DNA from: Trypanosoma brucei
Taxonomy: Eukaryota
DNA length: 64,000 bases
NCBI GenBank assembly: GCA_000002445.1
Contig: CM000207.1
Span: 2,848,001-2,912,000, forward strand
Direction of reading: 5' to 3'
Below the pieces are notes generated by a model, which saw only the letters and a list, made by a program, of their open reading frames with translations, was not told the origin of the DNA and made no database searches. The translations under genes were made by a program, and so were the position numbers. Shown in pieces: positions 827-64,000 of the stretch (the first letter of the stretch is position 1; every line of letters starts with the position of its first letter).

Positions 827-839
827 GCTTTTCCTGTTC

Positions 840-9084: not shown

Positions 9085-9145
9085 AAAAAATTTATAAATT
9101 TCATAAGTATTCACAAAATTGAGCAAACCCCTTCCTGAAACATTA

Positions 9146-10552: not shown

Positions 10553-11974
10553 CATCTTTGGTCCGCTGCGAAACCATACCCATGAGGCATAAAGAAGGGT
10601 TAATTAGTTTTAAGTGTACAGGTTTGACCGTAACCACTCTTTGTTGTTTTTGTGTTCTAGTCGGGTATGGACCGGATTTTATAACAATGACATATGGCTC
10701 TTGGTTAAAAGCAAACTCCCTTATAAAGATTTTGACAATTTTATCGTTGTTGATTTATTTGGCTACTTTCTGGAACAGTTTTATTAGATCTTTATTTGCT
10801 CCAGTCTGCTGGCGGTATATAATAGGATCTACGGTCGTTTCCTCATTTATTATATTTTAGTAAAAATGACGAAGTCTACTTTCAAAAACTACCACTTTTA
10901 AATCACAATCTTTATCAGTGTACATCTAAAACAATTAAAATTTATGATCGTTTTCCGCTTTTATCTTTGCACAAGCCTCTGTCTGTGGGAGTACTTCAGT
11001 GACGATACAACTCCACCGCCTCTGCTGTACGCATAGCCTTGATCAATTCATGGTATTGTACTGTGTGCACTTCCTTTCTTATGTTTTCATCAGGCAAGTG
11101 GAGCTCTGACTACACTCTTTTGTTTTGAAGTTTCTTGAGACGGTCCATCAAAGCCTCATCATCGTATATTCTTATATGAGTTATCCGGTATTTTGAGGCT
11201 GCTATGATTATACAGTGAGTCAGTAGTGGAGAGTCGGAGCATTATTTGAATCTTTCTGTACTTCATAAAGGTCTCTATTGTCCACATATATACTATTTTA
11301 AGAACCTACCGTCTTTATTGTTCTTTTTTGATCCATAGTATTCCGTTAGTACTCCTCGTTTTTAAATCTTTATCCAAGCAATATTATATTGTGGTACAAT
11401 AAATGTTGATTATTATTCTTATATCTTGTGAGAAGATTGCAACATCATTTTGAAGCTAAATACTCTCTTCTTTCTCCTGCTTACATTTTTTACTCATCTT
11501 TTTAACAGGTGGATATTAGGATCTACTATCAGATTTTAAACAACAGTTTTCTCGAACTTCACTGCTGCACCCATTGGTTTATGAGTAAAGCAGAGAGCAT
11601 CATCTCCTGATGTATTATTTTTTTTAGTGATGTACTGTCTTGCATCCTGTCACCACATTCTGTATTTTTTGTTCCTTGTCTTTACTTTTCTGCCACTTTT
11701 TTTGGATAACGTAGACAACTTATTTCGCCTGTAAACTGCATTGTGTCCCTTTATTATTGTCCCATCCCTCATATTAACCTATATGATGATTTCCCTTTTT
11801 ATGTATTAATTCGAAAACGCGAACATTTAATCTCCGTCTTTCTCTTCTTTTTTGCGCCCCCTTTAATAATAATATTACTCGTCCACTCTTTCACAGACTT
11901 CTTTACTTACTCCTTGTGTGCCCTTACCATATCTTTACTTCTTCTTTTCTGTACATTCATTTAGTATTTACCAC

Positions 11975-12100: not shown

Positions 12101-12237
12101 TGATCTATTTTTACACACTATCACCATAATATTTCACAGCCAGAAGTCACTATCATACCAAATTTTCATTTGTTCAGGATTTTACAATATGTGAATTTTC
12201 CAAATTTTATAAAATTGTTCAAAAATTCCTTAAAATG

Positions 12238-13059: not shown

Positions 13060-14523
13060 TTAAAAAAGCAAGGCAGCAAATGCAGCAAACACGTGAGGAA
13101 CAGACACTCTCACATTGCTAGAAAATGACTTGTCATCTTTCTTTTCAGTTTCAGGTTTTGGAAAGCATCTTTCACCCTCAGGTTTTTTATCATCAAAATC
13201 ACAACCAGCTTCCTTTTTACAATCTTTGGCTGTTGTATGCTTTTTGCATTCGTCTGCTGATTTGGCTGGTTCTGTTGTTTTATCTGTATTTGTGGGACAT
13301 GATCGATTTGCTTGGTTTTTCTTCTTTTGTTCTTGTTCGTCGACGAATTTTTTGACTGTGTAATAGGTTGCTGCATTTGCGAGCTCTTTGGGGTCATTTA
13401 TTGTCTCAAGCTTATTTTCCCCATTTCCACCTACTGCGGATTTTGGGGGCTTTAGGTCCTTGAGGTCTTTGACTATGGTGTTTTTTACTATTGTTGGCTC
13501 TTTGCCAAATGTTTCTGCCATAAACGAGTCGACTTTCGCTTTCGTTGCAGAGTTGGCATATGTCGCTTTGTCTCCATCTAGAGCTTTGGCTATGGCCTCC
13601 TTCAGTTCCGGTCGCGCCGCTACGTCTTCTGGGCTTGAGACATCTGATATGGCGTCTAATGCCTCTACCGCCGTTTCTAGTTTTCTTATTGCTGTAACCG
13701 CCTTGTTTAAAGTCTTGTCATTGGGTATCGTTGTTGTGCTGGTAATTGCTGGATATGTTTTGCCTGCTGAGCTAGCCAGTCGTGTGGTTGTTACGGCCGC
13801 TGTTTTAAGGAAGTCCCCGCCTTTGATCCCGATAAAGGTTGCTTCGTTTTGACATCCGGTTGATGGCGCCGTCCCAGTGGAGCCGTGTCCCCAAATTGTC
13901 AACAATTCGTTGTGCGTTGTGCCAGGGGTATTTGCACTGACGACGAAAAACTTTAATGTGGGCTCGCCCTGATTGGGTTGGGCTGCTTCTGCGTCGCTTA
14001 CTGGTGACCCGTCGTCATTAAAGCACGCCGCTGTTGCTGCTGGTGCTAGGGTCGGTTTGACTTGGATTATGCCGGGCGTCGTGACGGCTTGAGCCGCCGT
14101 TAGCGTATTGACGTCCTGTACTTGCGCTGACTTAATTTCTGAAACGATTGTTTGCTGGCCTGCTAGCTCGGCCGCGGCCGTGAAGCCTTCTAGAAAATTG
14201 GACGTTTCGGTTTTTATCGTTTCAAGTGCCTTGGCAGTTTCCGAAGCTAGGTTGGCTGCTAATATGCTGGCTGCTGTTGCCGCCCCGCCTGTTTTATAAG
14301 CTGCTACAACGCGTAGTTTGTTTGATTTTTCTAGAGCGCCTTTTGCGTTTGTTAGTCCTCTCTCCAATGCGCTCTCCGCTTGCCGCGTTAAGTGACGCAT
14401 GTAATGACTTGCCCCGCATGTGGTCGTTACTTGAGCTTTGGGATTGTGTAGCAAAGTGGTGCCTTGTGCAGTAATGGCCGCTGCTAGTGCTAGCGCACCG
14501 GTTGCCGCTATCCAGTAATTCAT
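13060..14523 (-). CDS. VSG: Variant surface glycoprotein, apparently intact (487 aa, A-type N-domain)
   Basis: A single uninterrupted frame from ATG (cat at 14521-14523) to the stop. Signal peptide MNYWIAATGALALAAAITAQG. Cys-containing N-domain (TTTCGASHY...). CTD with CKKEAGCDFDDKK. Canonical GPI tail SVPHVFAAFAALLF*. Confidence 0.85.
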   Translation of the reverse strand: MNYWIAATGALALAAAITAQGTTLLHNPKAQVTTTCGASHYMRHLTRQAESALERGLTNAKGALEKSNKLRVVAAYKTGGAATAASILAANLASETAKALETIKTETSNFLEGFTAAAELAGQQTIVSEIKSAQVQDVNTLTAAQAVTTPGIIQVKPTLAPAATAACFNDDGSPVSDAEAAQPNQGEPTLKFFVVSANTPGTTHNELLTIWGHGSTGTAPSTGCQNEATFIGIKGGDFLKTAAVTTTRLASSAGKTYPAITSTTTIPNDKTLNKAVTAIRKLETAVEALDAISDVSSPEDVAARPELKEAIAKALDGDKATYANSATKAKVDSFMAETFGKEPTIVKNTIVKDLKDLKPPKSAVGGNGENKLETINDPKELANAATYYTVKKFVDEQEQKKKNQANRSCPTNTDKTTEPAKSADECKKHTTAKDCKKEAGCDFDDKKPEGERCFPKPETEKKDDKSFSSNVRVSVPHVFAAFAALLF

Positions 14524-15647
14524 CGCAGTCGCTTCACTGAGTTAGTGAGGATTCCGTTCTTCGTTTGTCTGGGTTGGAACTCTAGTTGTCCTCAGGTTGA
14601 CCTTTGACGGTTATATTTGCATAAAAATTGCGGTGATTGAAGTTTTAATCTTGTAAAGGATCTCACATACCTGGTTTTTAGAGTTTGTTCAGCCTCAGTG
14701 CTTTGGTTTTTGGGTTTCGCGCTGCAACCTGCACATTAAACTCGTAGTGTAAGGTTTTGGAACTGTGTCATCTTTTAGGGCATAAACGGATTAAACGAGT
14801 TTATAACATCATAAACATAATGAGAAGGGGGAAGGATTTCAATAAACGACTTTTTTGTTCAAATTTTCCATCTATAATTCCAATATATATCGGATTATAT
14901 CTATGTCCATCATCTAGTTTCGTTCCATTCAAGTGACGTACTTCTTTAAGATACATCGAATATTTTTATACCTTAAAATTAGAAGCTTATGTCTTGTCTT
15001 TGCATATAATTAGCGACAATTCTCCAGTCCACGCCGCTGTAGTAACCAGAAAACTTCTTTTTTGTCATGGAAGCAATTGAAATTTGCTTTGGTTTTGCAT
15101 TATGAGTTCTTTCGTTTTTTGTCTAAGTTCAATGCTCTGAAAATTTGGTCCTGAAACTTCTTTTACCTTTGCGTTTGTTTTTTAGAAACATAACTATATT
15201 TCACCATTTGTAACCGCTTTCATATACATCACTCGTTTCCTGAAAACTATTAGCTTCAGTCTAGCATACCAATATGGAATTGGAGGCATATTCCCATTGA
15301 TTCTTTACGCTTCATAGAGATCCTTCATTTGGCCGTATAGAATGTTTATTTTTCTGTTAACTGTATGTTTCCATTGTGCTTTGTTCATAAGCTTATCCTT
15401 TCTGTATCGCTGTATAGAACATATTATATACATTTTTCAGTTGTTTGCGTTGTGCATCTTCATGATGAGTGTTTGTTCATTACTTAGTTTGATACCGCGT
15501 GTAATCCATCTCTATTCGTAAAATTTCTTTTATAATAGTATTTCTTGTTGCTCCTGCAAATTTTTCTTCAAACGCTTAATTTCATTGCATCCTTGCAATT
15601 GTTTTAAGTAAATCTATTATCGCAGTGTATCTATTGTTCAACGTCAC

Positions 15648-30728: not shown

Positions 30729-32229
30729 TAAAAACTCTTTTCTTTGTTTCGATTTACTACTTGTTGATGTTGTATTTGAAGGTGTTTTTGGTAAAGTTGC
30801 AAAAAATCATCTGTAAGCGGTGTCAGCTATCGACTGTCTTCAATGTTGAAGTTAAGCTTGGGTGCGTTGTTGACGGACGAGTGATTGTCCTACCTGTGCT
30901 TTGTTTCCTTATTTTGCTTTGTGTGGTGGATAAGTTTCTGTGCTTTTTTTTCGGATTATGGCATTGAAGGGGTAGAACCTCATAACACCAGAACCTTCGT
31001 TCTTGGGTCTGCATCTATTTTAACTTTCACCAGCCTATTTAGTAAGTGCTTCTCGATCTTACGGGGCTACAGTATGACGTTCAAGGATTTCTCATGCTTT
31101 TAAAAAAGACAAGTTCCTCCGTCACAGCGCTTTCATCCCTAACCTTTCTTCCTTCTTTTCTATTTTCTTTAACGGATTATCAAAAACCATACTCATTTAC
31201 TGCTGTTGTTAATGTCTCTCCAGTGATTTTATCTTTGCTATTTTTCCGCACTTGTGAAAATACATTACAACTTGCAGCGGTGTATTAACGATACATCCCA
31301 AAAAACTGGCTTTCACTCTTATATCCCATCACCACAGGTTTATTAATTACCATTTTCATTGGCATCACAGTTTTCTCCGATGGATGCACTCATTTTGAAG
31401 CCAAATGCGGACCATTTTTATTCTTCATGCATTTTAATTTTAAGAAAATCCCATGTCCTTGGGAAACAATGGTTTATATCGGCGTAGAGAGCTCAGTTTT
31501 ATATTTTAAGCGTTTTATTTTTCTCTTTTCGTGTTGACATTCTGGGCGCTAATGAGAAGGTTTTGCTTCTCATTTTTCTAAACTCATTCCGTTTGGAACT
31601 TGGATTTTCGTATTTCTTCCATGTTTATTTTTGTGTTTCTACCGCTTTTTTAGTGCTTGTTACTCTCTTTTAAACGTATAAATAGATGAAAATTTAGGAA
31701 AAATAAATACTTATGTAAAATGGATGTAATTTTCTGGTGTTTGGCCGCTGGGTTGCATCTACTTAAGCTATTCTATGTCATCTCATTTATAATCTATTGA
31801 TTCTTCGATTTGAGTTATATTTTCACACTTTCAGCTGACTTCAAACTCGAAAATGTTGAAATGATTTGTTCTATCGGATAACTTGTTCAATTTACTTAAA
31901 TGCAAGGCCCTATAAGCGTCAGTGCCTCTACACTATTTTTTGATGCCATAACAGTTTTATTCATCGCTTCACTTCGATGTTTTTGTGCTTTCTTTTGGTT
32001 TCTGTTGTTATCGAGACATCTACTTTGATGAGGTTGCTTTTAAATTTATTGGAAGCACTTATTTTGTTTTTGTCTGCGACTTTAGTCGTTTTTATTTATT
32101 TTATTTTTTCTTGAGTTACAGCCAGTCGGCAAGCTGCTTAGATTCCGATAATTACAGTGTCCTATGCGCATTTACTCTAGTGTACCACCATTGCACTTTA
32201 GAATTATATTCCCGTTGATATCGTTTCGG

Positions 32230-43862: not shown

Positions 43863-44760
43863 TCAGCAATTGTCATCCATAATTCGGTCACAGTGGTGAC
43901 AGCGGTGCGCTTTTGCTGCTTGTCTACAACTTCTTAGCTCTAAAAAGATCCCCTTCTTTACACGCATCACCACAAATAGTTCCATACACAAATCCAAATT
44001 TTCTCCAGATACTGCATATGCTTGCAGCTTCCTAAGAGTGTGATTCGCATTAAATTGCTTTCTTTCCCACTCTATATACCAATTAAGGTTGGATACGATC
44101 TTTTTAGAATTTGCCTCCCAGGTTAACTCATGTCCTAGAAAGTGAAGAAACGCAGGTTTTCTGAGCGAAGTTTCGTAAGGAACTGAGAAAAACTGCTCTT
44201 TATAATCCAGACCTATCAGCCCTCCTTGCAAAACGAATCTACTGCTGACATTCTCTTCACGTTCCACACTTCACAACAACAAGGGAATATAAATGCTTTT
44301 TTGGACCACCATTCGTCAGCCACTGCAAGAACTTTATCGAAGGCGGCTTTAAACCTCTTAAATGCCCGAACTCGTGCTATTAAATTACCGCTCCAGAGGT
44401 ATGGCTTCCCTGTGTCGTGAAATTTTAGTAGAGGCGGTAGGACTTTCTCTTCTTCTGTCTTGCTTGTCATCTCAAAAAACCACCGACAACGTTCTTTATG
44501 TTCTTTGTAATCAGAATAAACTATCAAGTCCAACTGAGGTTCATAATACTCAGCTGTCGTCATGAATAGAATCGGAGAAATTTGTTTGTCTTTAACGACA
44601 CCCTCCTCACTAAATTTATCTTCATTATCATCAGTATTTTGTATAAAATATTTACTGCACTCTCATACTTCTCTTTCCATCAGAAACAATAACATAAGAT
44701 CCGTCAACAGTCATTACAATATTATCATCACTTACATTCTGTCTTTCCAAAAACTCCATA
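43863..44760 (-). pseudogene. Non-VSG ORF fragments of unknown identity (frameshifted; about 300 codons in 3 frames)
   Basis: Minus-strand ORFs 44216..44563 (…LPPLLKFHDTGKPYLWSGNLIARVRAFKRFKAAFDKVLAVADEWWSKKAFIFPCCCEVWN…) and 43863..44267 (…FLHFLGHELTWEANSKKIVSNLNWYIEWERKQF…HRCHHCDRIMDDNC) overlap by 52 nt. A further piece upstream, about 44580-44760, reads MGGLYSHVKRLIWVMEFLERQNVSDDNIVMTVDGSYVIVSDGK. Composition is coding-like, unlike other cassette upstream regions. There are no VSG hallmarks and I do not recognise the family. Confidence 0.4.
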
Positions 44761-49762: not shown

Positions 49763-51152
49763 TCATAGAAATAAGTCGAGAAAAAGAGGAGCCTTAACGA
49801 CAAAAGAACTGTTACCTGTGGTGTTAGTGTTTTTTTCTTCCTTCTCCCTTTACTTTTATCGTATCTTTAAGTTCGCACTTTCCGTCTTTGTGTTCGCAAT
49901 CTTTGTCCTCTGTGCATTTAGTTGCTTCAGTGTTTTCCTTGCATTTTTCTGTTGATGACTTGATTTGTGTCTCGCTGCTTTTTCCCTGACCTTGTGGGTA
50001 GTTCTGTGTCCTCTGAAATTTTGAAAAGCCGCTTGCTACAGCTGCTGCTGCTTGAGTGTCTCCGTTCAGCTGTGATATGTCGACAGTCTGGTCGTCTTTT
50101 CCACTGTAGTACGTCGCTTTTGTTTTTTCTATTGCTTGCCATATCTTGGTTTGAAACTCTGTCCAATCTTCTTTGCCATAGTATTTCCGGAGCGCTGCGT
50201 CGAGTGCCGCTTTGCTGGTTCCGGTTAGATCTGATACCGGCTTGTCGCTGACAGCTGTTCGGTACACCAGTGTATTGAAGTCACTTGAGGCCGTGTATGT
50301 TTCTAGGGCTGTGAGGTCTCTGTGGCTCAGTAACGCCGCAGCTGCCTGAAATGCTGCGCTGTGCTTGGCTTGTAGTTCTGACGTTGTCAAATGTGACAGC
50401 TTGATGTTAGTTATGCCTATTTTTTGGTGGATTTTCCCGGTTATTTGTCCGCCCGCATGTGTGCTGGTTGTGTGCTTGAAGTGAGCGCCGATCGTTACTT
50501 TGTCGCTTGCTACGTTGTTGCAGGCGCCACTGCCCCCTTGGTTCGTGCACTTTAGTGTTGTTTCCATTGTCAGTTCAGTTACCTCGATTCCCTGATCGAA
50601 AGTGAAGACTAAGTCCTCGATCGGTGTTTTGTCATCGTCTTCCGTGTTCCCGCAGCTGCTTCGCGTTTTCTTGTTGTGGTTGTTAGCTGCAAACGTGGCA
50701 CTTACTAGCGCCGAAACTGCAGCTTGCGTTATAACAGCAACGTCGTACGCGGCAGCTACATAATTGAGTTGGTCGTATAGTACAGCTACTTCCTTTAGGC
50801 GTTGCAGGTGATCTTTAACTTTGGGGAGTCGTGTTTCGACCGTCCTTGCGTACTGTGCTGCTTTCGTGACTGCTGTCGCTAGCAGGGGTGTTAATGCTCT
50901 TTTCAGCTCTTTGTTTCCGTCTGCAATTCCCAGTAAGAGTTTTTCGATTGTGGCGGCGTCCTTTTGTAAATTCTTTGGTGCCGCTTCAGCTGCAGCTCTC
51001 AGCCTGTCTGCGAGTTGAGCTATTCGTGCAAGGCACTTGCACGGACAGCCGCACTGCTCTCGGGCAGCTGATTGTTTTACTGCGCTTGCCGTTGGTGCTC
51101 CGAGCAGCCACACCGTGTACAGTATGATTGGTGTCGGTTTCGGTGCGTTCAT
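49763..51152 (-). pseudogene. VSG: VSG, near-intact (single frameshift about 25 codons from the C-terminus)
   Basis: 442-aa ORF 49824..51152 with signal peptide MNAPKPTPIILYTVWLLGAPTASA, a full N-domain and CTD, ends …KGEGRKKH*. A shifted frame gives EKNTNTTGNSSFVVKAPLFLDLFL* ending at 49763-49765, matching the …TNTTGSNSFVIHKESVVHAFLLL family of 9146. Confidence 0.8.
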
Positions 51153-52879
51153 TGCTGATTTTTTTTCGGTTACTTTTTCTTTTGGTTATTGAGAGCTTCT
51201 TTGGGTTAGGTTTCTTTTTTTGTTTCCTTCCGTGGTGTGATTGGGAAAGTGGTGCTTCGGCGGTCTTGGTTAGAACAGCCGCCGTTACATGGCCGCTGGG
51301 GCCATAAGAGAATCCTGCTTAGTGTATGGTGTCTCTGGCTCGTTTCTGTTGGCAGCTGCTGCTCGTATTGGTTATAAGAGTTCAGCTAGCTTTCTTATGT
51401 TGATGTGCCGGCTCCGGACTTGCAACGAGTCACTTGCGTTTCTTTTTGTTAGATTGGTAAACAATTAGCACAGTTATTTGAATATAGCTGTTTTAATCGC
51501 TTCCTTAGGAATGTAGCTTGTCTAATGGATAGACGTGTTATCACAATCAATGCCGACGTTGTAACTTTCTGAATTCTTAGCCAACTAGGCATTGGTTGAT
51601 AAATTAAGTAAGACCGTGGATAGTAACTTAAATAAGTCAAAGGAATTTCATTTTATCCCGTTCTCGCCGGATACACTTCTATTGAGCTGGTTTTGTAGCT
51701 GAGAATCACTGGTGTGAAGACCGTTTCCTGCGTGCACCGGTATTACTCCGGCGCAAAAATAGTTGCAGGCTTGTTGTAGAGACTATTTCAAAGGTGTTCT
51801 AGCGTCGCTGTTTTATGCCTTTGTGGTTTAAGCGACTCCAGATAGAAGATTAGCACAATCAGTTATTTATTTATTGCTAGCCAAAAGACCAAGCAGCGTT
51901 ACAAGTAAACACGCCATATATAGGCTACTATAGTTAGTGATGTTGTTGGTTTGTTGGCTTCACTTGTTGACCAGTCTCAGTTTTTCCACAATTGTAGGTA
52001 GCTCTGCCGTTTTAATTGCTTGAATTATCTTTTGTGCACGATCCCTGGCCAAATGTAAGCAAACTATTGTATAAAGTTGTGCAGCACTGTATTTTTTTCA
52101 ACGTACATGAAAAATAAAAGAAAGAATGCTGATTTGGTTAATTTTATTGTTTATGGTAAAAATAACGCAGTTAACACCAGAAATATCAACTTTTAAATCT
52201 GTACTGTACAATGCTATATCCGTATATAAAAGATATATCATTTATGGTCAGTGCCTGCTTCTGTTGCTGTCCACCCCCTGTTGCAGCGATGGTTCTACAG
52301 TAATAATATAACGATGACACTTCGGTCATACGCATGACCTTGCTAATTGTTTAATACCTGTCGTGCCTGACCCTCATAGTAGTTTATAATGGAAATGTCT
52401 TTGGCTTTTTATTCGCCTTTTTGGTTTTATCGATGCCACCTCAGTGCGCATACTTATGTGAACTATACATTCCTTAAATGACCTCAACCTTTTTCTATTG
52501 AGCAAGCATGGAATCGGAAAAGTACCACTATTGTTCATTTTTACTTTATAAAGCTTTGCTGAGGGGTTCCATCTCCCGGTTCCTCTCCATGAGAATTCTT
52601 CGAGTTTGCACATTATTCAGAGACCCCTTCTTTTGTTAATACCATCTGTAACGTAAAAGATGTACTAAGAGTGCACTCTGCACTTTGCGTATACCTTTTT
52701 TTCGACTAATTCATCTCCATGTTTAAGATAACATACATCGTCATATTAGTGTTTGATACTGTATACATTCCCTCCCCATATATCGCTCTTCTAGTTATTT
52801 CTCCCCTACTATTACTACAAGTGCATCTATTTTATCCTTACCATACACTTTTTGCACTTGCCCTATTCCAATATCAGTA

Positions 52880-53030
52880 CACACACACACAGAACATTTT
52901 TCTCTTATTATTATTATTATTATTACATTTATTATATTAGTATAGTCACACTCACAACATACTACTATTACTACTATTTCTAATACTCTCATACCCTAAC
53001 TAATATCCGTAAAATCGACAAAAACTAAAA
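52880..53030 (-). repeat. 70-bp repeat region
   Basis: cacacacacagaacatttttctcttattattattattattattacatttattatattagtatagtcacactcacaacatactactattactac. Confidence 0.8.
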
Positions 53031-53224
53031 AAAAAGAATGTTGCTTATTAGTACACGCATTTCATACACTAACATCATACTTTACACCTATAGACTACTA
53101 TTATATTAAAATTTTGTATTTTTAATATCTTTATCATTTACACATCTTCATAAATTTCATGAAATTAGCAAAAAATTCACTAGAAGTTTCAAAAGACCAC
53201 ACAACTCATAAAGACAATTATAAT

Positions 53225-53417
53225 CAGAAATAATTATTATTTACAAGGAACCTGTAGTCTTTGAAAGCATTATTTTCCTATTTTCAATTGCTAGTGCAAT
53301 CTCTCTGTTGGTTATATTTGCATTTTGAAGAAGTTTGCGTCCCTTCAGTTCCTGTTTGTATTGCTGTTTTCTATATTGCTTTCGTGTTAGATTTGCAGTT
53401 TTTTCCATCTTTCTCAC
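53225..53417 (-). pseudogene. VSG: VSG 3' fragment (CTD plus decayed GPI tail) truncated by ingi
   Basis: Reverse complement reads …KDGKNCKSNTKAI..KCKYNQQRDCTSN.. then AFKDYRFLVNNNYF*. The segment 53215-53290 is near-identical to the CTD-end/GPI segment of 5578..7157. The fragment ends at the ingi poly(A). Confidence 0.65.
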
Positions 53418-53689
53418 TTTTTTAAAATTTTTTTCGTGCCTTCGTGAGAGTTTCCCCACACACACACTGGCGCGGCCATCAGCCATCACCGTAGAGCCCT
53501 GAGATGCTATCGGTCTGGCGACTGTGGCAGAGTCTTCCTTTTTATTCAGCCTAACACACTCTCTATAATTTTTGTTGTAGCTCCGCAGTTGAACGGAATA
53601 CAGCAGATGGGGCGAGAAGCCCCCCACACCGGACTCTCCAAAAGGTGTCAATTAGCAATCCTTTTGTTTTGATTTTTGTTATTCGTTTA

Positions 53690-55030
53690 TTATTCTCTCT
53701 CCCTCTTTCTGTTTCTGTTGCTTGTTGATTGCATACCCCCTCTGTCTCTGAGGGTGTCTGGACTATTCCTGCGTCCGGTGCTTTTCCTGCTAGCTCCACT
53801 CTCGGCAATAAGGGGGAAAGTTGCAGAAAGGAGAGTGGGTTGTATAACTGTTACATTAGGGGAGGACTTCACATGCGGCCGGTTCCGTTCAACCGCAATG
53901 AGAAATTGCGCCAGTCTTTTAGAGAATAATACATCCTGCACACACACACCTTCTACCGCAAACCTGACACGTAACTCCTTCAAACCGGGGCAGCTCATCA
54001 AGTGCAGCGACGTTTCTTCGCAGTCGCCGCGTTGGCTGGTAACAGCGCGCTCTACCTTCATACTGTGCATCTTATTTTGATGTAAGGTGAGGCCAGTTTT
54101 GCTAGCACACTGCCTTCCGCATGTCAGGCACATCAACATGGATGTGTTTGTATGTGGGGAATCAGTGACACACAATTTTGTGCTTTTGCTGCATTAAAGC
54201 TCGACTCTCTCACCTTTATGGAAAGCCTTACAGTGTCGGATGAGGGAGTCCCTGCAACTGAGCACTTTTTGGCACACACCACACTGCTCCTCGCCTTTCC
54301 CCGGGACGTCAACGTTTCCTTCACGGGCACGCTTACGAGGGAATTGCACCACCACCACGGTACCGTCCTCCGTCACTATGCTCTTATGTTTGAATTTCTT
54401 GTGTAGTGACAGAGAAGAGCGTGTACCGAAGCTCGCCTCGCACAGGTCACATTATAACGGCAGCTTCCGTGTATCCTGAGGGGCTGGCGCTGCTGGGGCT
54501 CTACCATTTCCTTGCAATGAGTCCTCGTTCTCTCGCCCCCTTTTCATGCGGCAACTACCGCTGCCTATGCCATGTATTGTTCTAAGGTGGTGTAATAGTC
54601 GGCCTGGCACTGCGAATTTGGAGTCACAGAGGGTACAATGAAGCACCTGCGGTCTCATCGAGACTCGTGTACTCGATGGTAGAGGAACGATCGCCACCAC
54701 TGGAGGGGGCTTCGGGGAGATATCCACTGCAGGTCTTGCATCGCCGTATTTGATCCTCCAGAGGGCATCAGCTCGCACAAAGCCGTGTTTGTTTACCATA
54801 TGCGTTACAGCACTCGAGCGTCATTGGTATGTGGCATCACATTCCGTACATTTGATCGGTTCGGAGGGTTTCTGAAGAGTGCGTGTCGCAACAGTTGGGA
54901 CCGTTTGTATTGTTGGTCCTATCGCTGCATGTTGCGGGTTACACCATCGGCACTGTGGAGGCACACTCGGGTTGATCTTTCGCAACATCCATCCATAGTG
55001 CCTTGAAAACCCAACCCGAAAGCGTGCCAC
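53690..55030 (-). pseudogene. ingi C-terminal zinc-finger region, broken into at least 4 frames
   Basis: C2H2 fingers (CLTCGRQCASKTGLTLHQNKMH, CGVCQKVLSCRDSLIRHCKAFH, CTLCDSKFAVPGRLLHHLRTIH, CTECDATY) are spread over ORFs 53690..54175, 54194..54376, 54452..54799 and 54821..55030. Confidence 0.75.
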
Positions 55031-55167
55031 TGTTGTTTCTTCTTCCCTCGTCAGTTCTTCTTTATGTTTTGTTGGAAAGTGGTTGCCGTGATACCAAACC
55101 TATGAGTGTTCTCATGGACTTCTTCCGACCTAAGCACTCGCTTCGCATAAGCAATGATGTCGGGGAT

Positions 55168-57990
55168 CTATGTGTCTCGAAACTGTGGTAAATCAGCAGC
55201 CTTTTTCGCCATTTCATTACAAACCTCATTCCGTTTCACGCCACAATGGCCAAACACAAATTGCTGTCGGATACGTATCTTCCTTCTCTGAACTTGAAGC
55301 AGAAGCCTCCATAGTCGTCTTAGAATTGGGTCCGTCACGGCTAGGGGGCATGTCTGCAGTGCTGTTAACATTGACAGCGAGTCAGAGAAGATGGACAACC
55401 TGCTCGGTGTGCTTCTGTATGCCGGAAGCCATTTCAGCAGCCGTTGCAGTCCTATCTCTAATGCTACGCATTCCGCTCTGTAACTGCATGAGAGTTCCCC
55501 TGCTCCGGTCTTGGGTGCACAAATCAGCGTGTTGTTTCTATAGAGCAGGGCAGCTGCCCCGGACTTCTCACCGAGGGACACGGATCCATCAGTACACAAT
55601 TCGTAGTGCTCTCGCCGCGGTGGCTCCTTCCCCCTCCGTGCAAAATGCCGTTCAATCCACTTTTCGGAAGCCTCCCTTTTGACATCGTCAGGGTCATCAG
55701 CGCACACAGGCTTTATCTGCGTGTGAAATATCGGTCGGCAGCTGTGGCGGAGCGTCGATGTCTCTAGTGGGTGCTCGCGTGGCTCAATGCGGAGGTGGGG
55801 GTAGGACCGCATGATGCGGGAATGTAAGACTCTGACTGGGTGTTTGCTGTGGTATACTTCTTCAGCACTGCGCCGTAAACATCCGCCTCGTGACTCACAC
55901 ATCAGCATGAATTTTATGCTGTGCACAAGAGTGGCCGTCTTGAGTGGCAGCAGGTTTGCTTCCAGCAGAGAGTTCTCTTTGCGCGTCCCATGCGGTATGC
56001 CGGCTATGATGCGACTGGCTTTGTGTTGTGCTGCTGCAAGGAGGTCTAGACTTCGTTTTGAAGCGTCCCAGTACCATACCTCAATGCCATACATGGTGTG
56101 TGCCTGTACGAGTGCTAGATAAAAAGCTCTCAGTACTTGTCGTCTTGGCCCCCATGTAGAAGCTGAGATGGATGTTATCTGCAGTAGTCTCAAGTCCATG
56201 TTGCGTCTCGTTTCGGCTGTATGTGTTGCCATCCCCTGCAGACACTGGAATGTTACTCCTAGAAGCTTCGGTGTCCTGTCAGCTCCTATTCTTTCGCCGT
56301 CCAGTTGTAATGTAAGGGGGTGGCGCTCTATACACCCGAAGAGTGTGCACTCTGTTTTCGCTACGCTGATAGACATGAAGTACTCTTTTGACCACTGTAA
56401 CACCACGTTTAGGCCGCATTGCAGTGTGTGGTTGATGGCATCCCTCTCTGTGTGCCTCGCAAGTAGCGTTAGGTCGTCTGCAAAGAATCCGTGCTGCAGC
56501 AACGGCACTTCTGCAAGGCGTTGGCTCAACGAGTTCATGACAATAATGAACATGATTGGGCCAAGGACAGTTCCTTGTGGCACTCCTCGCTCAAATGTTC
56601 TGCTTCTGGAAAGCTTCTCCTTGAATCTCACTCTGCCAGTTCGGTTACTCAGAAATGATACGCACCACTTCACAATGTGGTGTGATACCTTCATTCTGTG
56701 CATTTCCCTCGCAACTTTGTCGTGGTCTACTGTATCGAATGCCTTCTCGTAGTCAACGAATACAGCACCCGTACGATATTGGTGCGTGGGACGGCAGAGG
56801 GCAGCGCGGACGTGCAGCAGTTGTTCGAGCGTTGAGCATCCGGGGCGAAAGCCTGATTGCTGCGGCGTCAGCTGGGACTCAACAGTGTCTCTAATCCTTG
56901 CGGCAATTATGCGTTCCATGACTTTGCAGAGACAGCTCGTGAGCGTCACAGGCCTGTAAGAATCGAGGTCCTCCGCCTTTTTTCCGGCCTTCAGGATGGG
57001 GATGATAACACCAGTCTTCCATGCAGGCGGCACGACTACCGTTCGTAGGCTCTCATTGAATAGCCTCAGAACAACATTCAGCGCTGTTCTGCCGAGATGT
57101 TGCAGTGCCTCGTTGTGTAAGCAATCAGGTCCGGCTGCGGATCCACTCGGTAGCAGTTTGATCGATCTCCGTAGTTCAGCCATCGTGATGGGACTGAACT
57201 CACTCGCTATCGTCTTTATTGGTGCTGGTGGGTGTGTGTCGGGATGCCTTCTTGCTTGAGACGAGTACAGTTTACTGAACCTCTCAGCTTGACGGTAGTC
57301 CGTGATGGCCGTGTTATCAACAAGTACAGCCGGTGTGGTTAGTGGTCGTGGCGCATATACCTTCTTGACAATGTGCCAACTGCAGCGGTCTGACACCGCA
57401 AGTCTGGAGCATAGTGTGCTCCATCTCTTCTTTGTGGTACGGTCCAGGATCTGCTTACGTGTGGCTACCAACTTTTCCCTTCGGTGGGAGGGTCCGCATC
57501 CAGCGATCTCTTCATCGAGTTTCGCGAGCTCAGGTGTCCAATGTGGTGGCGTTGCTCTGCAGCTACGGGGGACGGAGACCTTCGTCGCAATGCGGATGGC
57601 GGAGCTCAATTTCTGTTCCAGGGTGTTGACATTCTTCTCTCTACTAATTTTCCTGCAGAGCTCGTCAACCTTGAGATGGAAATTCCTCCAGTTAGCTTTT
57701 AGCCATGCGTACATGAGCTTTCGAAGCCGCGGGCAACTCAGTGCATCTGTGTCGTCTCCAACGATAACGTCGAAAAATATGTGATGGTGATCGCTATCGG
57801 GAGAATACAGCGATGTCCACGTGTACACTGTGCGATTCCTTGACAGTGTCACATCAGGGGTGGACTCCCCGTGGTGGCGCGCGTACCTGGTGCACTCACC
57901 AGTGTTGCAGACCAGAAACTGGTTGTCAATGCACCACTGTGTGAGGGTTTCACCCTTTGTATTTGGTGGGCTCGCGCGATCCCATGCCAA
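55168..57990 (-). CDS. ingi reverse transcriptase / RNase H portion (940-aa frame)
   Basis: RT motifs PDCLHNEALQH.., FRPGCST.., GVPQGTVLGPIMF, FADDLTLL, followed by an RNase H-like region. It overlaps the endonuclease frame by 142 nt in a different frame, implying a frameshift versus the canonical single ingi ORF. Confidence 0.85.
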   Translation of the reverse strand: MAWDRASPPNTKGETLTQWCIDNQFLVCNTGECTRYARHHGESTPDVTLSRNRTVYTWTSLYSPDSDHHHIFFDVIVGDDTDALSCPRLRKLMYAWLKANWRNFHLKVDELCRKISREKNVNTLEQKLSSAIRIATKVSVPRSCRATPPHWTPELAKLDEEIAGCGPSHRREKLVATRKQILDRTTKKRWSTLCSRLAVSDRCSWHIVKKVYAPRPLTTPAVLVDNTAITDYRQAERFSKLYSSQARRHPDTHPPAPIKTIASEFSPITMAELRRSIKLLPSGSAAGPDCLHNEALQHLGRTALNVVLRLFNESLRTVVVPPAWKTGVIIPILKAGKKAEDLDSYRPVTLTSCLCKVMERIIAARIRDTVESQLTPQQSGFRPGCSTLEQLLHVRAALCRPTHQYRTGAVFVDYEKAFDTVDHDKVAREMHRMKVSHHIVKWCVSFLSNRTGRVRFKEKLSRSRTFERGVPQGTVLGPIMFIIVMNSLSQRLAEVPLLQHGFFADDLTLLARHTERDAINHTLQCGLNVVLQWSKEYFMSISVAKTECTLFGCIERHPLTLQLDGERIGADRTPKLLGVTFQCLQGMATHTAETRRNMDLRLLQITSISASTWGPRRQVLRAFYLALVQAHTMYGIEVWYWDASKRSLDLLAAAQHKASRIIAGIPHGTRKENSLLEANLLPLKTATLVHSIKFMLMCESRGGCLRRSAEEVYHSKHPVRVLHSRIMRSYPHLRIEPREHPLETSTLRHSCRPIFHTQIKPVCADDPDDVKREASEKWIERHFARRGKEPPRREHYELCTDGSVSLGEKSGAAALLYRNNTLICAPKTGAGELSCSYRAECVALEIGLQRLLKWLPAYRSTPSRLSIFSDSLSMLTALQTCPLAVTDPILRRLWRLLLQVQRRKIRIRQQFVFGHCGVKRNEVCNEMAKKAADLPQFRDT

Positions 57991-58664
57991 CTCGCGTGTG
58001 CGTTAGCGTCTGCACCGATGAGCTTGGCACCGTCAGTTGTCAGAAGCGTATCTAGGTCAGTTGCCGTGAAGGTGTGTTTTGGTGGGATGTATGCCGACGT
58101 GACAGTCAGCGCCGTTCCACGTGCAAGGTGAATTGTTGCATGCACTTGTTCAATGCGACCAACAACGGCCATACCGGTCTCGACTGGCAGGTCCTCCCTC
58201 ACTAGTATTGATACACCACCTCCTTTGCAGTTACGAGCTATTCCGTGATGTTGGTAGCCAGAAACGCTAAAGCAAGCCGCCTCTCCAGGCGTCATCCTTG
58301 TCTCGCTCAACAGACAAAAGGCGATCCGCTCATCAACAAGGGTTTTGTAGAGTGCTAATCTCTTTCCTTGAGATAGCCCGGCGTAGTTCCACTGCATCCC
58401 GCGCAACGACGGGCCGGGATTCTCTTCCACATCACCGGACAGCAGCATCTTAGTGCGGATGATACTGCTGATGGCACGCTGGCACGTGCCCAGGGACCGA
58501 CAAATGAAGAACGGTGTCCCAGCAAGACGCTGCTGATCCCTGTGCTGTATGATGCCGTAGCCGGAGCACAGCAGTGTTCCCCATGAAAGGAATGCTTCTG
58601 ACTCTTGGCTTCCCCCGATGATACGGGGTACTGGACCCTGGCACCACGTTGAAGTGGCCGGCAT
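57849..58664 (-). CDS. ingi N-terminal segment with 2A peptide plus AP-endonuclease domain
   Basis: …RTKMLLSGDVEENPGPSLRGMQWNYAGLSQGKRLALYK…VSILVREDLPVE…: the 2A-like D(V/I)ExNPGP motif followed by an APE-like fold. The ORF-track start lies inside the Pr77 region and is probably not the true start. Confidence 0.8.
   Translation of the reverse strand: MPATSTWCQGPVPRIIGGSQESEAFLSWGTLLCSGYGIIQHRDQQRLAGTPFFICRSLGTCQRAISSIIRTKMLLSGDVEENPGPSLRGMQWNYAGLSQGKRLALYKTLVDERIAFCLLSETRMTPGEAACFSVSGYQHHGIARNCKGGGVSILVREDLPVETGMAVVGRIEQVHATIHLARGTALTVTSAYIPPKHTFTATDLDTLLTTDGAKLIGADANAHASWHGIARAHQIQRVKPSHSGALTTSFWSATLVSAPGTRATTGSPPLM
58410..58433 (-). other. 2A-like self-processing peptide motif DVEENPGP
   Basis: Residues 78-85 of ORF 57849..58664. 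A motif of this type is known from trypanosomatid L1Tc/ingi elements. Confidence 0.7.
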
Positions 58665-58672
58665 CGCCAGGG

Positions 58673-59090
58673 AGCAGCAGAAGCAACGCTCCGGCAGCAG
58701 GCGAAATCAAAGCCTTGCACTACAAAAGAAAGCAAAGATCAACCCCAAAATATAGACATCGACACTCGCGCGGAAAAAGGAGTAGGAGATGAGTGCAAGC
58801 ACTCATTCAAGTTGTGAGTAACAGGCGACAAGAAAAAATGAGTAAAAGATCCGTATTTCGCCAAAAAAGCAGAGAAGGCAAAAGAAGGTGAGAAAATGCC
58901 CTCAGATAAGTGTACAAAACATGGCACTGATAAGGCAAACTGTAAAAAAAATGAGGGATTGGAAGTAGGAGCAAAATATCCATGTAGATGTATTGAAGAC
59001 AAGTGCAAATACTCTGATTTTCTAGTAAATAAGCAATTTAATCTCATTGTTTATTCTTTAATACGTTTAGTTAAATTAAAAAATTATTAA
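58673..59090 (+). pseudogene. VSG: VSG 3' fragment on the plus strand, truncated at the ingi 5' end
   Basis: ORF 58896..59090 reads …KYPCRCIEDKCKYSDFLVNKQFNLIVYSLIRLVKLKNY* (CTD plus GPI-like tail). Upstream, 58673-58830 reads CTD-like K/C-rich sequence in another frame. It is followed by a plus-orientation 16-mer-like motif and a 70-bp repeat. Confidence 0.65.
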
Positions 59091-59162
59091 CATTTAAAGA
59101 TTATTGCTCAATTTTATAAATATCTATTTTCTTGAGAAAATTTGGTAACATTAAAGAAAATT

Positions 59163-59178
59163 TGATATATTATAAAAC
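59163..59178 (+). promoter_or_regulatory. VSG 3'UTR 16-mer (degenerate, plus orientation)
   Basis: tgatatattataaaac versus TGATATATTTTAACAC, about 70 nt after the stop at 59090. Confidence 0.55.
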
Positions 59179-59317
59179 TTTTGTAAAACATTTCAAAATA
59201 TGAACAGTTAGAAATGTGATATAAAAGTTGCCTATGTAATCAAATTAGTATTGTAATAAGCTACGAAAAATAGGTGCTCTTTTCAAATTTTTTTTGTTTT
59301 TTATTCTTATTTTGTGA

Positions 59318-59415
59318 ATATTAGTCATGATCATGATAATAATAATAATAATGATAAAATAATGTTGTAAGTGTGTGTATACGAATAATATAATGGTGAA
59401 ATTGGTAATGCACCA
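59318..59415 (+). repeat. 70-bp repeat region, plus (canonical) orientation
   Basis: atgatcatgataataataataataatgataaaataatgttgtaagtgtgtgtatacgaataatataatggtgaaattggtaatg is the reverse complement of the motif seen in the minus-strand cassettes. Confidence 0.85.
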
Positions 59416-60757
59416 TTTATTCACTTTCCAAAGGCAGTCGGTAGCTTGGGAGGAGAAAGCGAAATTTATTGTGAAAAATCTTACTTAGTATAAAGAGTTG
59501 AAAAGCAAGCAATTTAACACTGGATATTTGGAGGATACTCTATATTACGCTAAACGATGGAAATTGAACTTTTAATATGACAGTTTTTTGCATAGTGGCC
59601 GAAGAATACAAATTTGTTCCTGCTTCATAAAGTGTTGCGCGATTTATGGCGCGCTGCCGGAAAGACAATACTTGTGCCGACAACAACACATAAATGAATC
59701 TGCGATGACGAGGCACAACCGGCGTGCCAAAAAGCCAGTAACTGTGGATAACAAGAACAGCCCACGCACAACCTTGCACAAGCCAGCCAAAAAGACAAAC
59801 CGAGCAAACAGAAACAGTCTTCAACACAACAACACAGCTGTGAAACGACATTGAACCAACAAAACCGGAGACATCAAGAATGAAGAAGCTCCATCGGCAA
59901 ATGTTCGACACTAGATACTTTCTTCAGAAACAGAGAGACACAGAACTTAACCAAACGGTCTTTACTCCGAAGTCAAAAGATCAGACACGCTCAAAAAAAT
60001 TTCAAAGGCAACATAATAAACATAGCAAACTCCCTTGCGGTTTAACCTAAAATAACAGAGTAGGCAAGCAACACAGGTCAAAAAAACGCGGAGTTCGCAA
60101 CTCCATGTTGAATTTATACTTACACACGAGCTAAACGGCTGTGCGAACTCGAAAAAGCCTTCAATCACAAAGGCGGCGTTCTCAATCCAATATTCAATGC
60201 CAACCTGACGAACGCACCTTATTCCTAACTAAAAACGAGAATGGAGGCGCCAGCAAAACATAAAGGAACAAGCAACAAAAAAGACAGCAGTAAAGGAATG
60301 GTCGAAAGAAGTCTCCCAGAGGCACAAAAAGAACCCCAGCCGTAACTCTACCGAAGACTATGAACCGTCAAAGGAAGCAGCATGTGACATCCTTACAAAT
60401 GTAGAAAAAAGCAGCATACACCAACAGCCAAAAGTACTCACAGAGCAACCTAGATCTTACAAACAGTAGTTACCTGCAGCATACAAGATTTTAATGGTAC
60501 ATTCTTCAAAAGCAATAAGGGACAAGCCAGCAATATTCTACAAACTAAGCGCTCAGCAGCGCGGAAACACCTACTGTAATTCAGACTTTTTTCAAACCAA
60601 ACATTGAAACATTCATCAAAAACAACAACGCTAAGCTCATTCTCTTTTAGGAAATTTTGAGATAGAGTCAGAAAAATGATATATTTGAGTATGCCAACAC
60701 GGTGGCTTTTTAGAATCTCAGTGAAAGTGGCATTGCTTTTAATTACCAGCCGGGCGT

Positions 60758-62200
60758 TTGCCAACATCGCTAAAGATGACAGCGTCAGGGAGATGGGCGC
60801 TCTGTTGGCTGATTGAACTAGGCAACAAGCGGGAAACACTAGCCATTCAGCCCCCAACTCAAAACACGGATTTGGACGATATCCTAGAGTTTAATACGAC
60901 CGTATCAGACCAAGCTTGGCTGGACCTGTTCCGAGACAAAACAAACAAGGAGACAATACGCGCATTCCCAGACGACGAGCTCGGGCAACACCCGGACTGG
61001 AAAGAAAGATGGAACAAATGGCAGGCAGCTGCTTTAAACGTAATCAAGCCGGACGGGCAACAAGCTGCACTGGCAAAGCACAAGCTAAAAGATATAACCA
61101 CAGAGAAGGAGGCGGCAATCCGCCCACCTGTCCAGCGCCACGCGGCCGAGGCAACTGCAACCAACGAACACATGCAAAAAGCAGCGCCGACAGAAAATCT
61201 GCTAAACGACAGCGCCTTACAACAAAAGCTAAACACGGCGCTCTACGGCGACAAAACCGGGAGCGACGCTCCTTCCGACGAAAGCAAACTTTTCAAGGGG
61301 GCAGCCACCGCCGCCGGGCCAAAATCAGCGTGCGAAGGCAGCACGCAAAACAACAAAGCCGTAACAGTCACGGCAGCTTTGCTATGTATATGCACCAGAC
61401 AGAACGGCGCAGGCAGCAACGAAGGCAGCGCGTGTGAGTACGTCACAGGGACCACCCAGACGTGGCCAGGAAGCAGTAACTATCCAGCCGCGGCAGCAAT
61501 ATCTGAAGCAGTCAAACTATGTGACTTACAGACAAAACACCATATTACGGCGGATACACTCGCAACGAAGCTACTGCACATCACAAAACTAATCATGCGC
61601 GTAAACGGAGCGGCGACCTTTGGTAAAACAATCAACGGCCAATGCACGGGCAGCCAAGACGGAGGCATGTGCGTAAAATACACAGACCTACGGACCAGCG
61701 GAAGTAAAACATAAACAGACATACCTTGGCTCGGTCAGCTACAGAAACTAGTGACAGTACTACGAAAGCACGAAAAAGCAGTACAGGTTCGCCAACAAGC
61801 ATCAGACGCAATAAGGAAAAAACGGCTACAAGCTCAATCACTGATCTACAGCGAATCACCACAAGCTCGAGAACAAATGCAACCCAAAAACTGCATACCA
61901 CAAAAAAAAACACCAAAGAATGTGAACAGCACAAGAACAACAAAACTGCATGCACAAATGCCAACTGCAAATGGTAAGAAAAAATGAAAAAGAGGAATGC
62001 AAACCTAAAGATGAAGAAGGACAGTCAAACACAGCAGAAGATGGAGTTTCAGGAGCAGCTGCAAAAGAGAAATGCAAAGGGAAACCCCAAGGCGAGTGCA
62101 AATCGCCGGATTGCAAATGGGAAGGTGCAACTTGAAAAGATTTTAGTTCCCTCACCAATAAGAAATTGGCTCTGATGGCTGCTGTATTTATTAGCTTAGT
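60758..62200 (+). pseudogene. VSG: VSG pseudogene on the plus strand (B-type N-domain; CTD frameshifts; degenerate GPI end)
   Basis: ORF 60758..61714 (318 aa) is a B-type N-domain (…LDDILEFNTTVSDQAWLDLFRDK…) with a poor signal peptide. CTD pieces 61726..61977 (KECEQHKNNKTACTNANCKW) and 61950..62135 (CKGKPQGECKSPDCKWEGAT) are in 2 further frames. A tail KDFSSLTNKKLALMAAVFISLVEL.. has no clean stop. Confidence 0.75.
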
Positions 62201-62424
62201 AGAATTAAAAACATTCCAAAAGATTTTTGCACAATTTTATGAAATTTGACAAATTTTAACACTTTTGACGAATATGTAAAATTTTATTGAAATTTTAAAA
62301 ATTTAGATAAGTTTAAGAATTTGAAATTTTTTATATGGTAGAGGACTATGAGTTTTAAATACCGTGGGAGAGAGTATGAAAAGTTAGTGCTATTTCGAAA
62401 TTTTTATCATTTGTTGATATTATT

Positions 62425-62530
62425 TGCTTTATGAATGATAGTATAAATAATAATAATATGACTGTGATGTAAGTGTGTACATACGAATATCATAATAAGA
62501 GCAGTGGTAATAATTGAATGAAAGAACGAA
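62425..62530 (+). repeat. 70-bp repeat region, plus orientation
   Basis: gaatgatagtataaataataataatatgactgtgatgtaagtgtgtacatacgaatatcataataagagcagtggtaataattgaatg contains the GTGTGTA.ATACGAATAT.ATAATAAGAGCAGT core. Confidence 0.9.
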
Positions 62531-63448
62531 ATAGAAGCACGTAAAGCAATAGTAAGGTAAAATAGAAATAATTTAGTTAGTTGGGGAGAGTGACATACCA
62601 CAAAGAATATTATAAAAGGAAACACAGAGAGACAGACAGACATAGAGAGAAATAGAAAAGAGATTGAATAAGCGGAGTTGAAACGTATAGGTGACAACTA
62701 GCATCATTACGCTCCAAACGGTAATGGATGAGAAAATTAGAAAAACAGGGTCCAAAGTACTAATGAAATAGAGGAACTACGTTGCTTTCAGAAGAAATTT
62801 TCAGTAACTGGCAAAGTGGGGCCGCATCGAAAAAAGGCATATTATACTGCACAAAAAGGGAGTTTATGCATTAGAATGAGATTTTCTCCCGTATTTCAGT
62901 CATAAATGAAAAGATATGATAGTGGTGATGGTGAAAATACGGTCTTTAACATGATGAAAAATAATAATGTTAAACGGTAATTTCTATAGGTTGCTACTCA
63001 TAGAATGAACGTGCGTAGCTTTACTTTACCCGCGCTCAAGTTAGAAGTGCGGAGTAATTTTAACATATTGCGACTTGAATTGTATACAGCAGTCACAGGA
63101 GCAGAAAAACACACGCAACCCTGCTACTCAGTAAGCCAGTCATATTCGGGGATGCACAAACTACCGAGTCAGAAACGAAGCCAGACACCGGATTAAAGGC
63201 GTCCCAGCGAAAGCACAAAAAACAGCAAGGATATCCCCAACTTCTATCAAATGTTTCTGACGGTCGAAACTGGAACTAACGGCCACACACATTCACATAG
63301 ATTATCGGCCGTTAAAACGTGATACGGTACAAGCAGCCAGCCGGGATATTAAGGACGCAAGTCACAGACACTGCACAGCCGGCGCCCAGCTTCATAATTT
63401 CACCCTCGGTTAGTCTATCGCTTTCTTGAAAGGAACTCCAAGTCACAG

Positions 63449-64000
63449 ATGATTGGCATCGCTCACGCTCAAGCCGCAATAGTAGAAACTATCGTTTTGA
63501 TAGATACGTCAGTGGCTGCGGAACCCGCAGGCGACGAACCCACAGCGCTTACAGCAGTGACGAACATCTGTAATAAGATTGAGTTGCTAACGCAGATTTC
63601 GGACGAGCTAACGGAGCGCATAGAACGCTTCGAGCAGGCCGAACAGCAGCTGGTAACCGACTGCAAGCTTCTCAATTTAGCTGCCGCCAAACATTACGAT
63701 ACAACAAGCAAACGCACCTACACGGTCCTAGAAGCAACAGCGAAAACACGGCGAGGCACCGATTTCACGGGACTACTAAACGACTACGCACAGCAAGAAC
63801 CTCTAAAAGCTTCGGCCAGCCTACACCGAGCAACGGCAGAGCCAATTCTTAACAAGCAAAACGTTGCCGACCTAAACACGCTAAAAGATGATATTGACAC
63901 CACCATCGATGCAGTCTTCGGCAAAAGCCAGAGCGAATACACTGACAGGTTTTGGGGAAAGCTAAAAGAAGTAAACGTCGACAAGGAAGCAGCCGGGATA
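63449..64000 (+). CDS. VSG: VSG, 5' part (open frame runs off the window end; not in the ORF track)
   Basis: Translating from the ATG at 63449 gives MIGIAHAQAAIVETIVLIDTSVAAEPAGDEPTALTAVTNICNKIELLTQISDELTERIERFEQAEQQLVTDCKLLNLAAAKHYDTTSKRTYTVLEATAKT… with no stop to position 64000. It has a signal-peptide-like start, a coiled-coil VSG-like N-domain, and a 70-bp repeat about 0.9 kb upstream. Confidence 0.65.
   Translation, partial: MIGIAHAQAAIVETIVLIDTSVAAEPAGDEPTALTAVTNICNKIELLTQISDELTERIERFEQAEQQLVTDCKLLNLAAAKHYDTTSKRTYTVLEATAKTRRGTDFTGLLNDYAQQEPLKASASLHRATAEPILNKQNVADLNTLKDDIDTTIDAVFGKSQSEYTDRFWGKLKEVNVDKEAAGI

Follow-up and report, generated by a model that had tools for sequence, protein, structure and literature searches.

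The 64,000 nucleotides of Trypanosoma brucei contig CM000207.1 analysed here (positions 2,848,001 to 2,912,000, referred to as the window) are part of a subtelomeric array of variant surface glycoprotein (VSG) genes of the Trypanosoma brucei group, and their open reading frames (ORFs) match the Pfam families Trypan_glycop (A-type), VSG_B and Trypan_glycop_C. The subject of this work is the ingi retroposon found in the window at the point where the array changes its coding strand. It lies between two truncated VSG genes, called X and Y below. The element and the two fragments comprise the following features, given in window positions:

53418-58672, minus strand: full-length ingi, a non-long-terminal-repeat (non-LTR) retroposon of 5,255 bp, coding-defective, recognised by end-to-end alignment, by comparison with an ingi protein and by Pfam.
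58594-58672, minus strand: 5'-terminal 79-nt signature of the element (Pr77 region), which starts with CCCTGGCGATGCCGGCCAC, as seen against seven reference copies.
53418-53434, minus strand: 3' tail of the element, reading A7 T4 A6 on the element strand after ...GGCACG at 53435-53440, as seen against the reference tails.
58664-57912, 57990-55054 and 55084-53720, minus strand: pieces of the ingi ORF in three frames, located by tblastn with the ingi protein P0130.
53224-53417, minus strand: pseudogene fragment of VSG X, C-terminal domain (PF10659, 22.1 bits, E = 2e-4, profile positions 16-92).
58673-59090, plus strand: pseudogene fragment of VSG Y, consisting of the hinge, the complete C-terminal domain and a tail resembling a glycosylphosphatidylinositol (GPI) signal (PF10659, 39.0 bits, E = 1.1e-9, profile positions 13-101).

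Concerning the polarity of the array, all ORFs of at least 200 aa to the left of the element (13 of 13) and all 70-bp repeat cores on that side (11 of 11) are on the minus strand. To the right, the sole ORF of this size (60758-61714, VSG_B) and the single 70-bp core, at 59364, are on the plus strand. The 16-mer of the VSG 3' untranslated region (UTR) was matched 13 times in the window with at most three mismatches, versus 1.14 matches expected by chance; nine of the eleven matches on the left are minus and both matches on the right are plus. The AT skew goes from -0.241 (1-53417) to +0.281 (58673-64000), corresponding to 37.5% T and 22.9% A on the left and to 37.5% A and 21.1% T on the right. 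The GC skew is nearly flat (-0.061 on the left, which is slightly C-rich, versus +0.006 on the right).

The initial annotation of this DNA had placed the ingi at a strand switch, with every VSG marker to its left in minus and every one to its right in plus orientation, and with a base composition that flipped from T/G-rich to A/C-rich. All the markers used here, namely ORFs, 70-bp cores, 16-mers and AT skew, change exactly at the element. The uniform plus orientation of the right-hand side is confirmed for its ORF, its 70-bp core and both 16-mers, over a stretch that spans merely 5.3 kb (about 1.5 cassettes) up to the end of the window. On the left-hand side the uniform minus orientation holds for the ORFs and the 70-bp cores but not for the 16-mers, and the compositional flip holds for A and T but not for G and C, the left side being slightly C-rich instead of G-rich. 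The two 16-mer matches on the plus strand inside the minus array are located at 12101-12116 and 31813-31828, with two and three mismatches, respectively; they are probably spurious, as their number is near that expected by chance.

The 64 kb contain a single ingi and a single polarity switch, which coincide to the base at the two ends of the element; this coincidence exceeds chance. No second ingi or RIME piece was found in the 64-kb window.

The ends of the element were determined with reference copies from ten loci (numbered L001 onwards), nine of T. b. equiperdum and one of T. b. gambiense, which were reached via a reverse-transcriptase cluster; the seven full-length T. b. equiperdum ingi copies among them served for the comparison of ends and of target-site duplications (TSDs). 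Positions 1-5255 of the element align with the copies in L001, L002 and L005 with 95.0-96.5% identity, and the alignment with L003 extends to position 5247. From its first base, where it begins with CCCTGGCGATGCCGGCCAC, the element agrees with the seven reference copies with one or two mismatches. A 79-bp signature at the 5' end of ingi has been described (PMC2323293 and PMC1874656). At the other end, the terminus common to the references reads ...GGCACGAA(A/G)AAAATT(T/C)(C)AAAAAA. The reference copies carry the same kind of tail as the element in the window, AAGAAAATT(T/C)(C)AAAAAA, and therefore the A7T4A6 run is part of the element and the left flank starts at 53417. The limits 53418-58672 thus obtained leave the left boundary where it had been placed initially. 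The terminal A run has six As in this copy versus 9-12 in the references. Near the same end, at 53441-53470, a private (TG)n expansion, CCAGTGTGTGTGTGGGG, is found where most references have CCAGTGGGGGG.

The longest ORF of the element matches the Pfam families RVT_1, RNase_H and Exo_endo_phos_2 (endonuclease), and the protein closest to it in the database is a reverse transcriptase of T. b. equiperdum, with 93% identity. All the residues of the intact ingi protein P0130 (1,656 aa) are covered by the tblastn matches, with 87-94% identity, in three frames. Two frameshifts interrupt the ORF, so this copy is non-autonomous and cannot move by itself. An Rfam scan for an HDV (hepatitis delta virus)-like ribozyme or any other RNA gave nothing at gathering scores, including the 5' signature. 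In relation to a leave-one-out consensus of the family, the element has diverged by 2.2% (5' part) to 4.6% (3' part), roughly 3%.

Both flanks of the element are VSG C-terminal coding sequence, as had been proposed, and the right-hand sequence is indeed VSG-derived; the two scores given above are over the PF10659 cut-off of 21.4 bits, and were obtained with conceptual translations in which in-frame stops had been masked. The X fragment has the same sense as the ingi and lies downstream of its A-rich tail. Of VSG X, about 64 codons remain, interrupted by three in-frame stops; the fragment ends with a TGA stop codon at 53224-53226, and is cut on its 5' side exactly at the 3' end of the element. 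The Y fragment is antisense to the ingi, retains about 138 codons, interrupted by two in-frame stops, ends with a TAA stop codon at 59088-59090, and is cut on its 5' side exactly at the 5' end of the element. Both fragments align up to the junctions with other VSG 3' ends, UTRs and 70-bp repeats of the window, in matching orientation.

As X and Y are on opposite strands and are broken at different places, they come from different genes. Furthermore, since it is the broken 5' edges of both fragments that abut the ingi, the switch is divergent: both VSG tails read away from the element, and the term convergent, which had been applied to them, has to be replaced. The cassettes to which the fragments belong, and their neighbours, are the following:

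49824-52958, minus strand: last complete cassette of the minus array, with its 70-bp core at 52947-52958 and its VSG ORF at 49824-51152.
59163-59375, plus strand: 16-mer of the 3' UTR of VSG Y (59163-59178, 14 of 16 positions) and 70-bp core of the next cassette (59364-59375), from motif matches.
60758-61714, plus strand: first VSG body of the plus array, a pseudogene with a B-type N-terminal domain (PF13206 VSG_B, E = 4.6e-42).

Beyond the X fragment, the 70-bp core at 52947 on the minus strand is followed by the VSG at 51152-49824, and no 16-mer within three mismatches was found in the 3' UTR of X. Beyond the Y fragment, the 16-mer at 59163 and the plus-strand 70-bp core at 59364 precede the VSG_B gene at 60758. 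Hence, the VSG 3' context is complete on the right and partial on the left, where there is a 70-bp core without the 16-mer. An inverted duplication, or palindrome, of the flanks was considered and rejected for the window and also for the reference locus L001, as the two flanks have nothing in common but the generic 70-bp repeat.

The insertion history of the element was then addressed through its target site. Insertions of Tbingi and TbRIME, which belong to the ingi clade, follow a rule of 12-bp TSDs (PMC3820030). The two 12-mers in which the copies of such a duplication would be expected are:

58673-58684, minus strand: the 12 nucleotides preceding the 5' end of the ingi, GCTTCTGCTGCT on the element strand, expected TSD copy of a putative parental insertion B.
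53406-53417, minus strand: the 12 nucleotides following the tail of the ingi, GTGAGAAAGATG on the element strand, expected TSD copy of a putative parental insertion A.

These two 12-mers do not match, in agreement with the initial annotation. A 12-bp TSD is absent: the best agreement at any offset in the 68 nt past GGCACG is 5 of 12 positions, a value reached or exceeded in 99.6% of the pairs when flanks were drawn at random from the window. At the divergence of this element, a TSD pair is expected to agree in at least 10 of 12 positions with P = 0.97, and in 5 or fewer with P of about 2e-6; mutational decay of the duplication is excluded for this reason. With two different VSG fragments in opposite orientation, with different breakpoints and no TSD, the earlier statement that a simple insertion into a single gene does not explain the locus is upheld.

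In the reference copies, TSDs are recovered by the same comparison: the TSD is perfect (12 of 12) in L005 and L007, carries one indel in L002 and agrees in 8 of 12 positions in L001. No recognisable 12-bp TSD was found in three of the seven full-length copies, those of L003 (5993-11231), L009 (5512-10773) and L010 (2486-7747). TSD-less full-length ingis seem to be common in T. b. equiperdum, which fits either frequent exchange between ingi copies or assembly joins through the repeat.

The locus L001 (T. b. equiperdum, GCA_003543875.1, CM010675.1:2164844-2183747) was the first reference fetched and had been picked by protein similarity alone, not by its context. Its ingi (6513-11764, plus strand) is located exactly at a convergent switch of a VSG array. 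On the left it is preceded by a VSG_B gene on the plus strand (1904-3667), with 16-mers and 70-bp cores also in plus orientation; on the right come 70-bp cores and an A-type VSG (13971-14852), all on the minus strand. Like the window, L001 shows a full-length ingi exactly between oppositely oriented VSG cassettes. Unlike in the window, these cassettes point at the ingi, the sequences adjoining the element are non-coding and lie on the downstream side of the 70-bp repeats instead of being VSG tails, and the flanking 12-mers agree in 8 of 12 positions. This topology is the one expected of a reciprocal product, though not of the event in the window.

The 8-of-12 pair of L001, which is TSD-like and flanks an element at a VSG-array switch, suggests that insertion at or near switch points may happen. 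On this basis, a single ordinary insertion of the ingi into a pre-existing head-to-head junction of truncated VSG tails could be imagined for the window, with a TSD that was later mutated away. Such a history is most improbable, given that the 5-of-12 agreement is no better than random and far beyond the decay expected at this divergence, and that the element would have had to hit precisely the point at which two truncated genes were already joined.

Another observation on the target sites concerns the sequence upstream of the 5' TSD position. In L001, L003, L005 and L010 there is a GGA at -7 to -5 and an A or T at -1, the four upstream 11-nt stretches being AGGATGAA, AGGATGAT, TGGATTAT and AGGAAAAT. 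These shared positions may be part of the recognition motif of the ingi endonuclease. In the 5' flank of the element in the window, the GGA is found at -8 to -6, one base farther upstream than in the four references, out of seven sites compared.

This offset has a bearing on an insertion-coupled rearrangement, in which reverse transcription would have been primed at a nick in VSG X, producing the canonical 3' junction, and the 5' end of the complementary DNA would have been ligated, in a single step, to a break in VSG Y and not to the site 12 bp downstream. Insertion-associated deletions and inversions of LINE-1 in mammalian cells are a parallel to a rearrangement of this kind. It would fit the absence of a TSD, and a GGA off the usual spacing of the four references is compatible with a non-canonical 5' join, although the motif comes from only 4 to 7 sites and the signal is too weak to weigh. 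A single step of this kind would nevertheless call for another, independent break, in a VSG of opposite orientation, and the two remaining ends would have to be accounted for separately; in addition, the ingi has its full length and its 5' terminus is precise. This explanation is considered quite improbable.

The locus combines an intact element, non-matching TSD halves and non-collinear flanks, which is the signature of retroelement-mediated ectopic recombination. Moreover, both canonical termini of the ingi are intact; therefore both junctions are element-end junctions, as expected if a crossover took place inside the element. The ingi of the window is probably a joint that arose when two older ingi insertions in the VSG array underwent homologous recombination. 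An exchange between two ingi copies explains the data most economically, and it is simpler than an insertion-coupled rearrangement given the abundance of copies. The TSD-less state of three of the seven references and the position of L001 at a convergent switch, with a topology of the reciprocal type, also point in this direction.

From the junctions described above, we infer two parental insertions, a recombination between them and its possible topologies. Through target-primed reverse transcription, parent A would have entered the part of VSG X that encodes the C-terminal domain, with the orientation of X itself, and its 3' junction with one TSD copy (GTGAGAAAGATG) would survive at 53406-53417. 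Parent B would have gone into VSG Y in antisense orientation, about 138 codons ahead of the Y stop codon, and its 5' junction with one TSD copy (GCTTCTGCTGCT) would survive at 58673-58684. A crossover somewhere in the 5.2 kb of shared ingi sequence would then have joined the 5' flank of B to the 3' flank of A. The predicted product is one full-length ingi with mismatched flanks, from which the tail of X reads to the left and the tail of Y to the right, and the geometry of the locus agrees with it exactly.

Two topologies could lead to this product. In the first one, A and B would have been inverted relative to each other in a co-oriented array, and the recombination would have flipped the interval between them and created two switches, so that the divergent junction would be paired with a reciprocal convergent one of the form X-head -> ingi <- Y-head. 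In the second one, A and B would have been direct repeats astride a pre-existing divergent switch, and the interval would have been lost, leaving an identical junction. Both topologies are equally compatible with the data. The initial annotation had proposed that an inversion or ectopic recombination between two ingi or RIME copies created the strand switch. Recombination between ingi copies is the best-fitting explanation here too, but the creation of the switch by inversion is only one of two outcomes, since a deletion leaves the same junction and fits equally well.

The initial annotation left aside the insertion-coupled rearrangement discussed above and also an assembly misjoin, which has the same sequence signature. 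In the latter, two unrelated subtelomeric contigs, one that ended within an ingi beside VSG X and one that began within an ingi beside VSG Y, would have been joined wrongly through the 5.2-kb repeat, and the switch would be absent in the organism. The ingi copies are 95-98% alike over 5.2 kb and numerous, with a cluster of 60 ORF fragments in the database and 470 transcription activator-like effector (TALE) target sites in Lister 427 (PMC12975129), and a misjoin gives exactly what is observed, a full-length element with mismatched flanks. In the Lister 427 assembly paper, misassembled contigs were broken and re-oriented (PMC6784898). On the other hand, the window contains no Ns or gaps, and long-read assemblies normally bridge 5 kb. 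Furthermore, the TSD-less state of three of the seven copies in an independent assembly suggests a biological cause, though the same problem is possible there. Taking both sides into account, a misjoin is regarded as unlikely.

Several points weigh against recombination between two ingi insertions as the origin of the joint. An assembly chimera through the repeat would yield the identical sequence. No parental or reciprocal junction was found in the window and the ten fetched loci; the strings predicted for a reciprocal product, GTGAGAAAGATG directly before CCCTGGCGATGCC and the ingi tail directly before GCTTCTGCTGCT, were searched for in the same sequences and neither was found. A canonical parental insertion B is not demonstrated, given the one-base offset of the GGA in the 5' flank. 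Finally, the divergence profile was tried as a sign of a chimeric element and rejected. In sliding identity against six references, counting private differences, the 3' 2 kb of the element shows about double the divergence of the 5' 3.3 kb. A leave-one-out control gave the same 3' excess for the copies in L002 and L005; it is thus a property of the family and provides no evidence of a crossover.

Several observations were made apart from the joint itself. In L002, the 3' part of a second ingi (9905-10971) lies inverted about 1.7 kb downstream of the intact one; an inverted ingi pair in such close proximity is the type of substrate that an inversion requires. In the window, the VSG at 49824-51152 shows 97% identity to VSG-1278 of Lister 427, and the VSG_B ORF at 60758-61714 shows 97% identity to the T. 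brucei VSG A0A1V0FYE6. An exact protein look-up of two intact VSGs of the window, aimed at the same locus in other assemblies, gave no match, and a homologue search with the VSGs nearest the ingi on either side returned only UniRef entries, without contig context. Inside the minus array, two overlapping minus-strand ORFs of 134 and 115 aa at 43863-44563 have no Pfam match. In their region the AT skew is locally much weaker, at -0.06 to -0.11 compared with about -0.25 in the rest of the array, while a GC skew of -0.21 is strongly negative. They may represent a non-VSG pseudogene or an insert in the array.

Antigenic variation draws on the silent VSG arrays as its raw material, and the long-term rearrangement of these arrays is only partly described. 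Where a retroposon joint marks a polarity switch, one such rearrangement has left a concrete scar that can be dated, and the joint yields two 12-mers that can be used as search handles for the partner junction in the same genome. Taken alone, the joint confirms the accepted recombination of ingi/RIME elements; it would carry more weight only if array switches turned out to be systematically bounded by ingi. There are some hints in this direction, since L001, which was fetched without selection for context, is also at a switch, and three of the seven references lack a TSD. As a tentative suggestion, which for now is more doubtful than not, polarity switches in silent VSG arrays could usually be bounded by ingi, and recombination between ingi copies could be the main process that reshuffles these arrays, inverting and deleting blocks of the antigen archive, with VSG C-terminal coding sequence perhaps as a favoured target.

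Compared with a canonical Tbingi insertion (ingi4 subclade, PMC3820030), the element of the window shares the length, the 79-nt 5' signature, the A-rich tail and the ORF with endonuclease, reverse transcriptase and RNase H. It differs in its lack of the 12-bp TSD of a canonical insertion, in an upstream motif that is not clearly recognisable and in the two frameshifts that interrupt its ORF. No description of ingi at VSG-array strand switches was found in the open literature.

In other eukaryotes, non-allelic homologous recombination between retrotransposons is known from L1-L1 and Alu-Alu deletions and inversions in primates and from Ty-Ty events in yeast. These cases share with the window an intact-looking element, non-matching TSDs and non-collinear flanks. 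In primates and yeast the reciprocal or ancestral state has been shown by genome comparison, whereas the event in the window is deduced from one junction.

The closest known system is found in T. brucei genomes, where ingi/RIME copies, about 95% identical, recombine and give rise to indels and inversions (Jackson et al. 2010, PMC2854126). The published examples considered here involve the same element family, the same organism group and the same process, homologous recombination between dispersed copies. They are located in chromosome cores, as indels on chromosomes 9 and 11 and inversions on chromosome 10. The window differs from them in its position inside a silent VSG array, in having VSG C-terminal domains as both targets and in lying at a polarity switch. 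With these differences of setting, the joint in the window appears to be a new instance of an already known process and not an unusual one.

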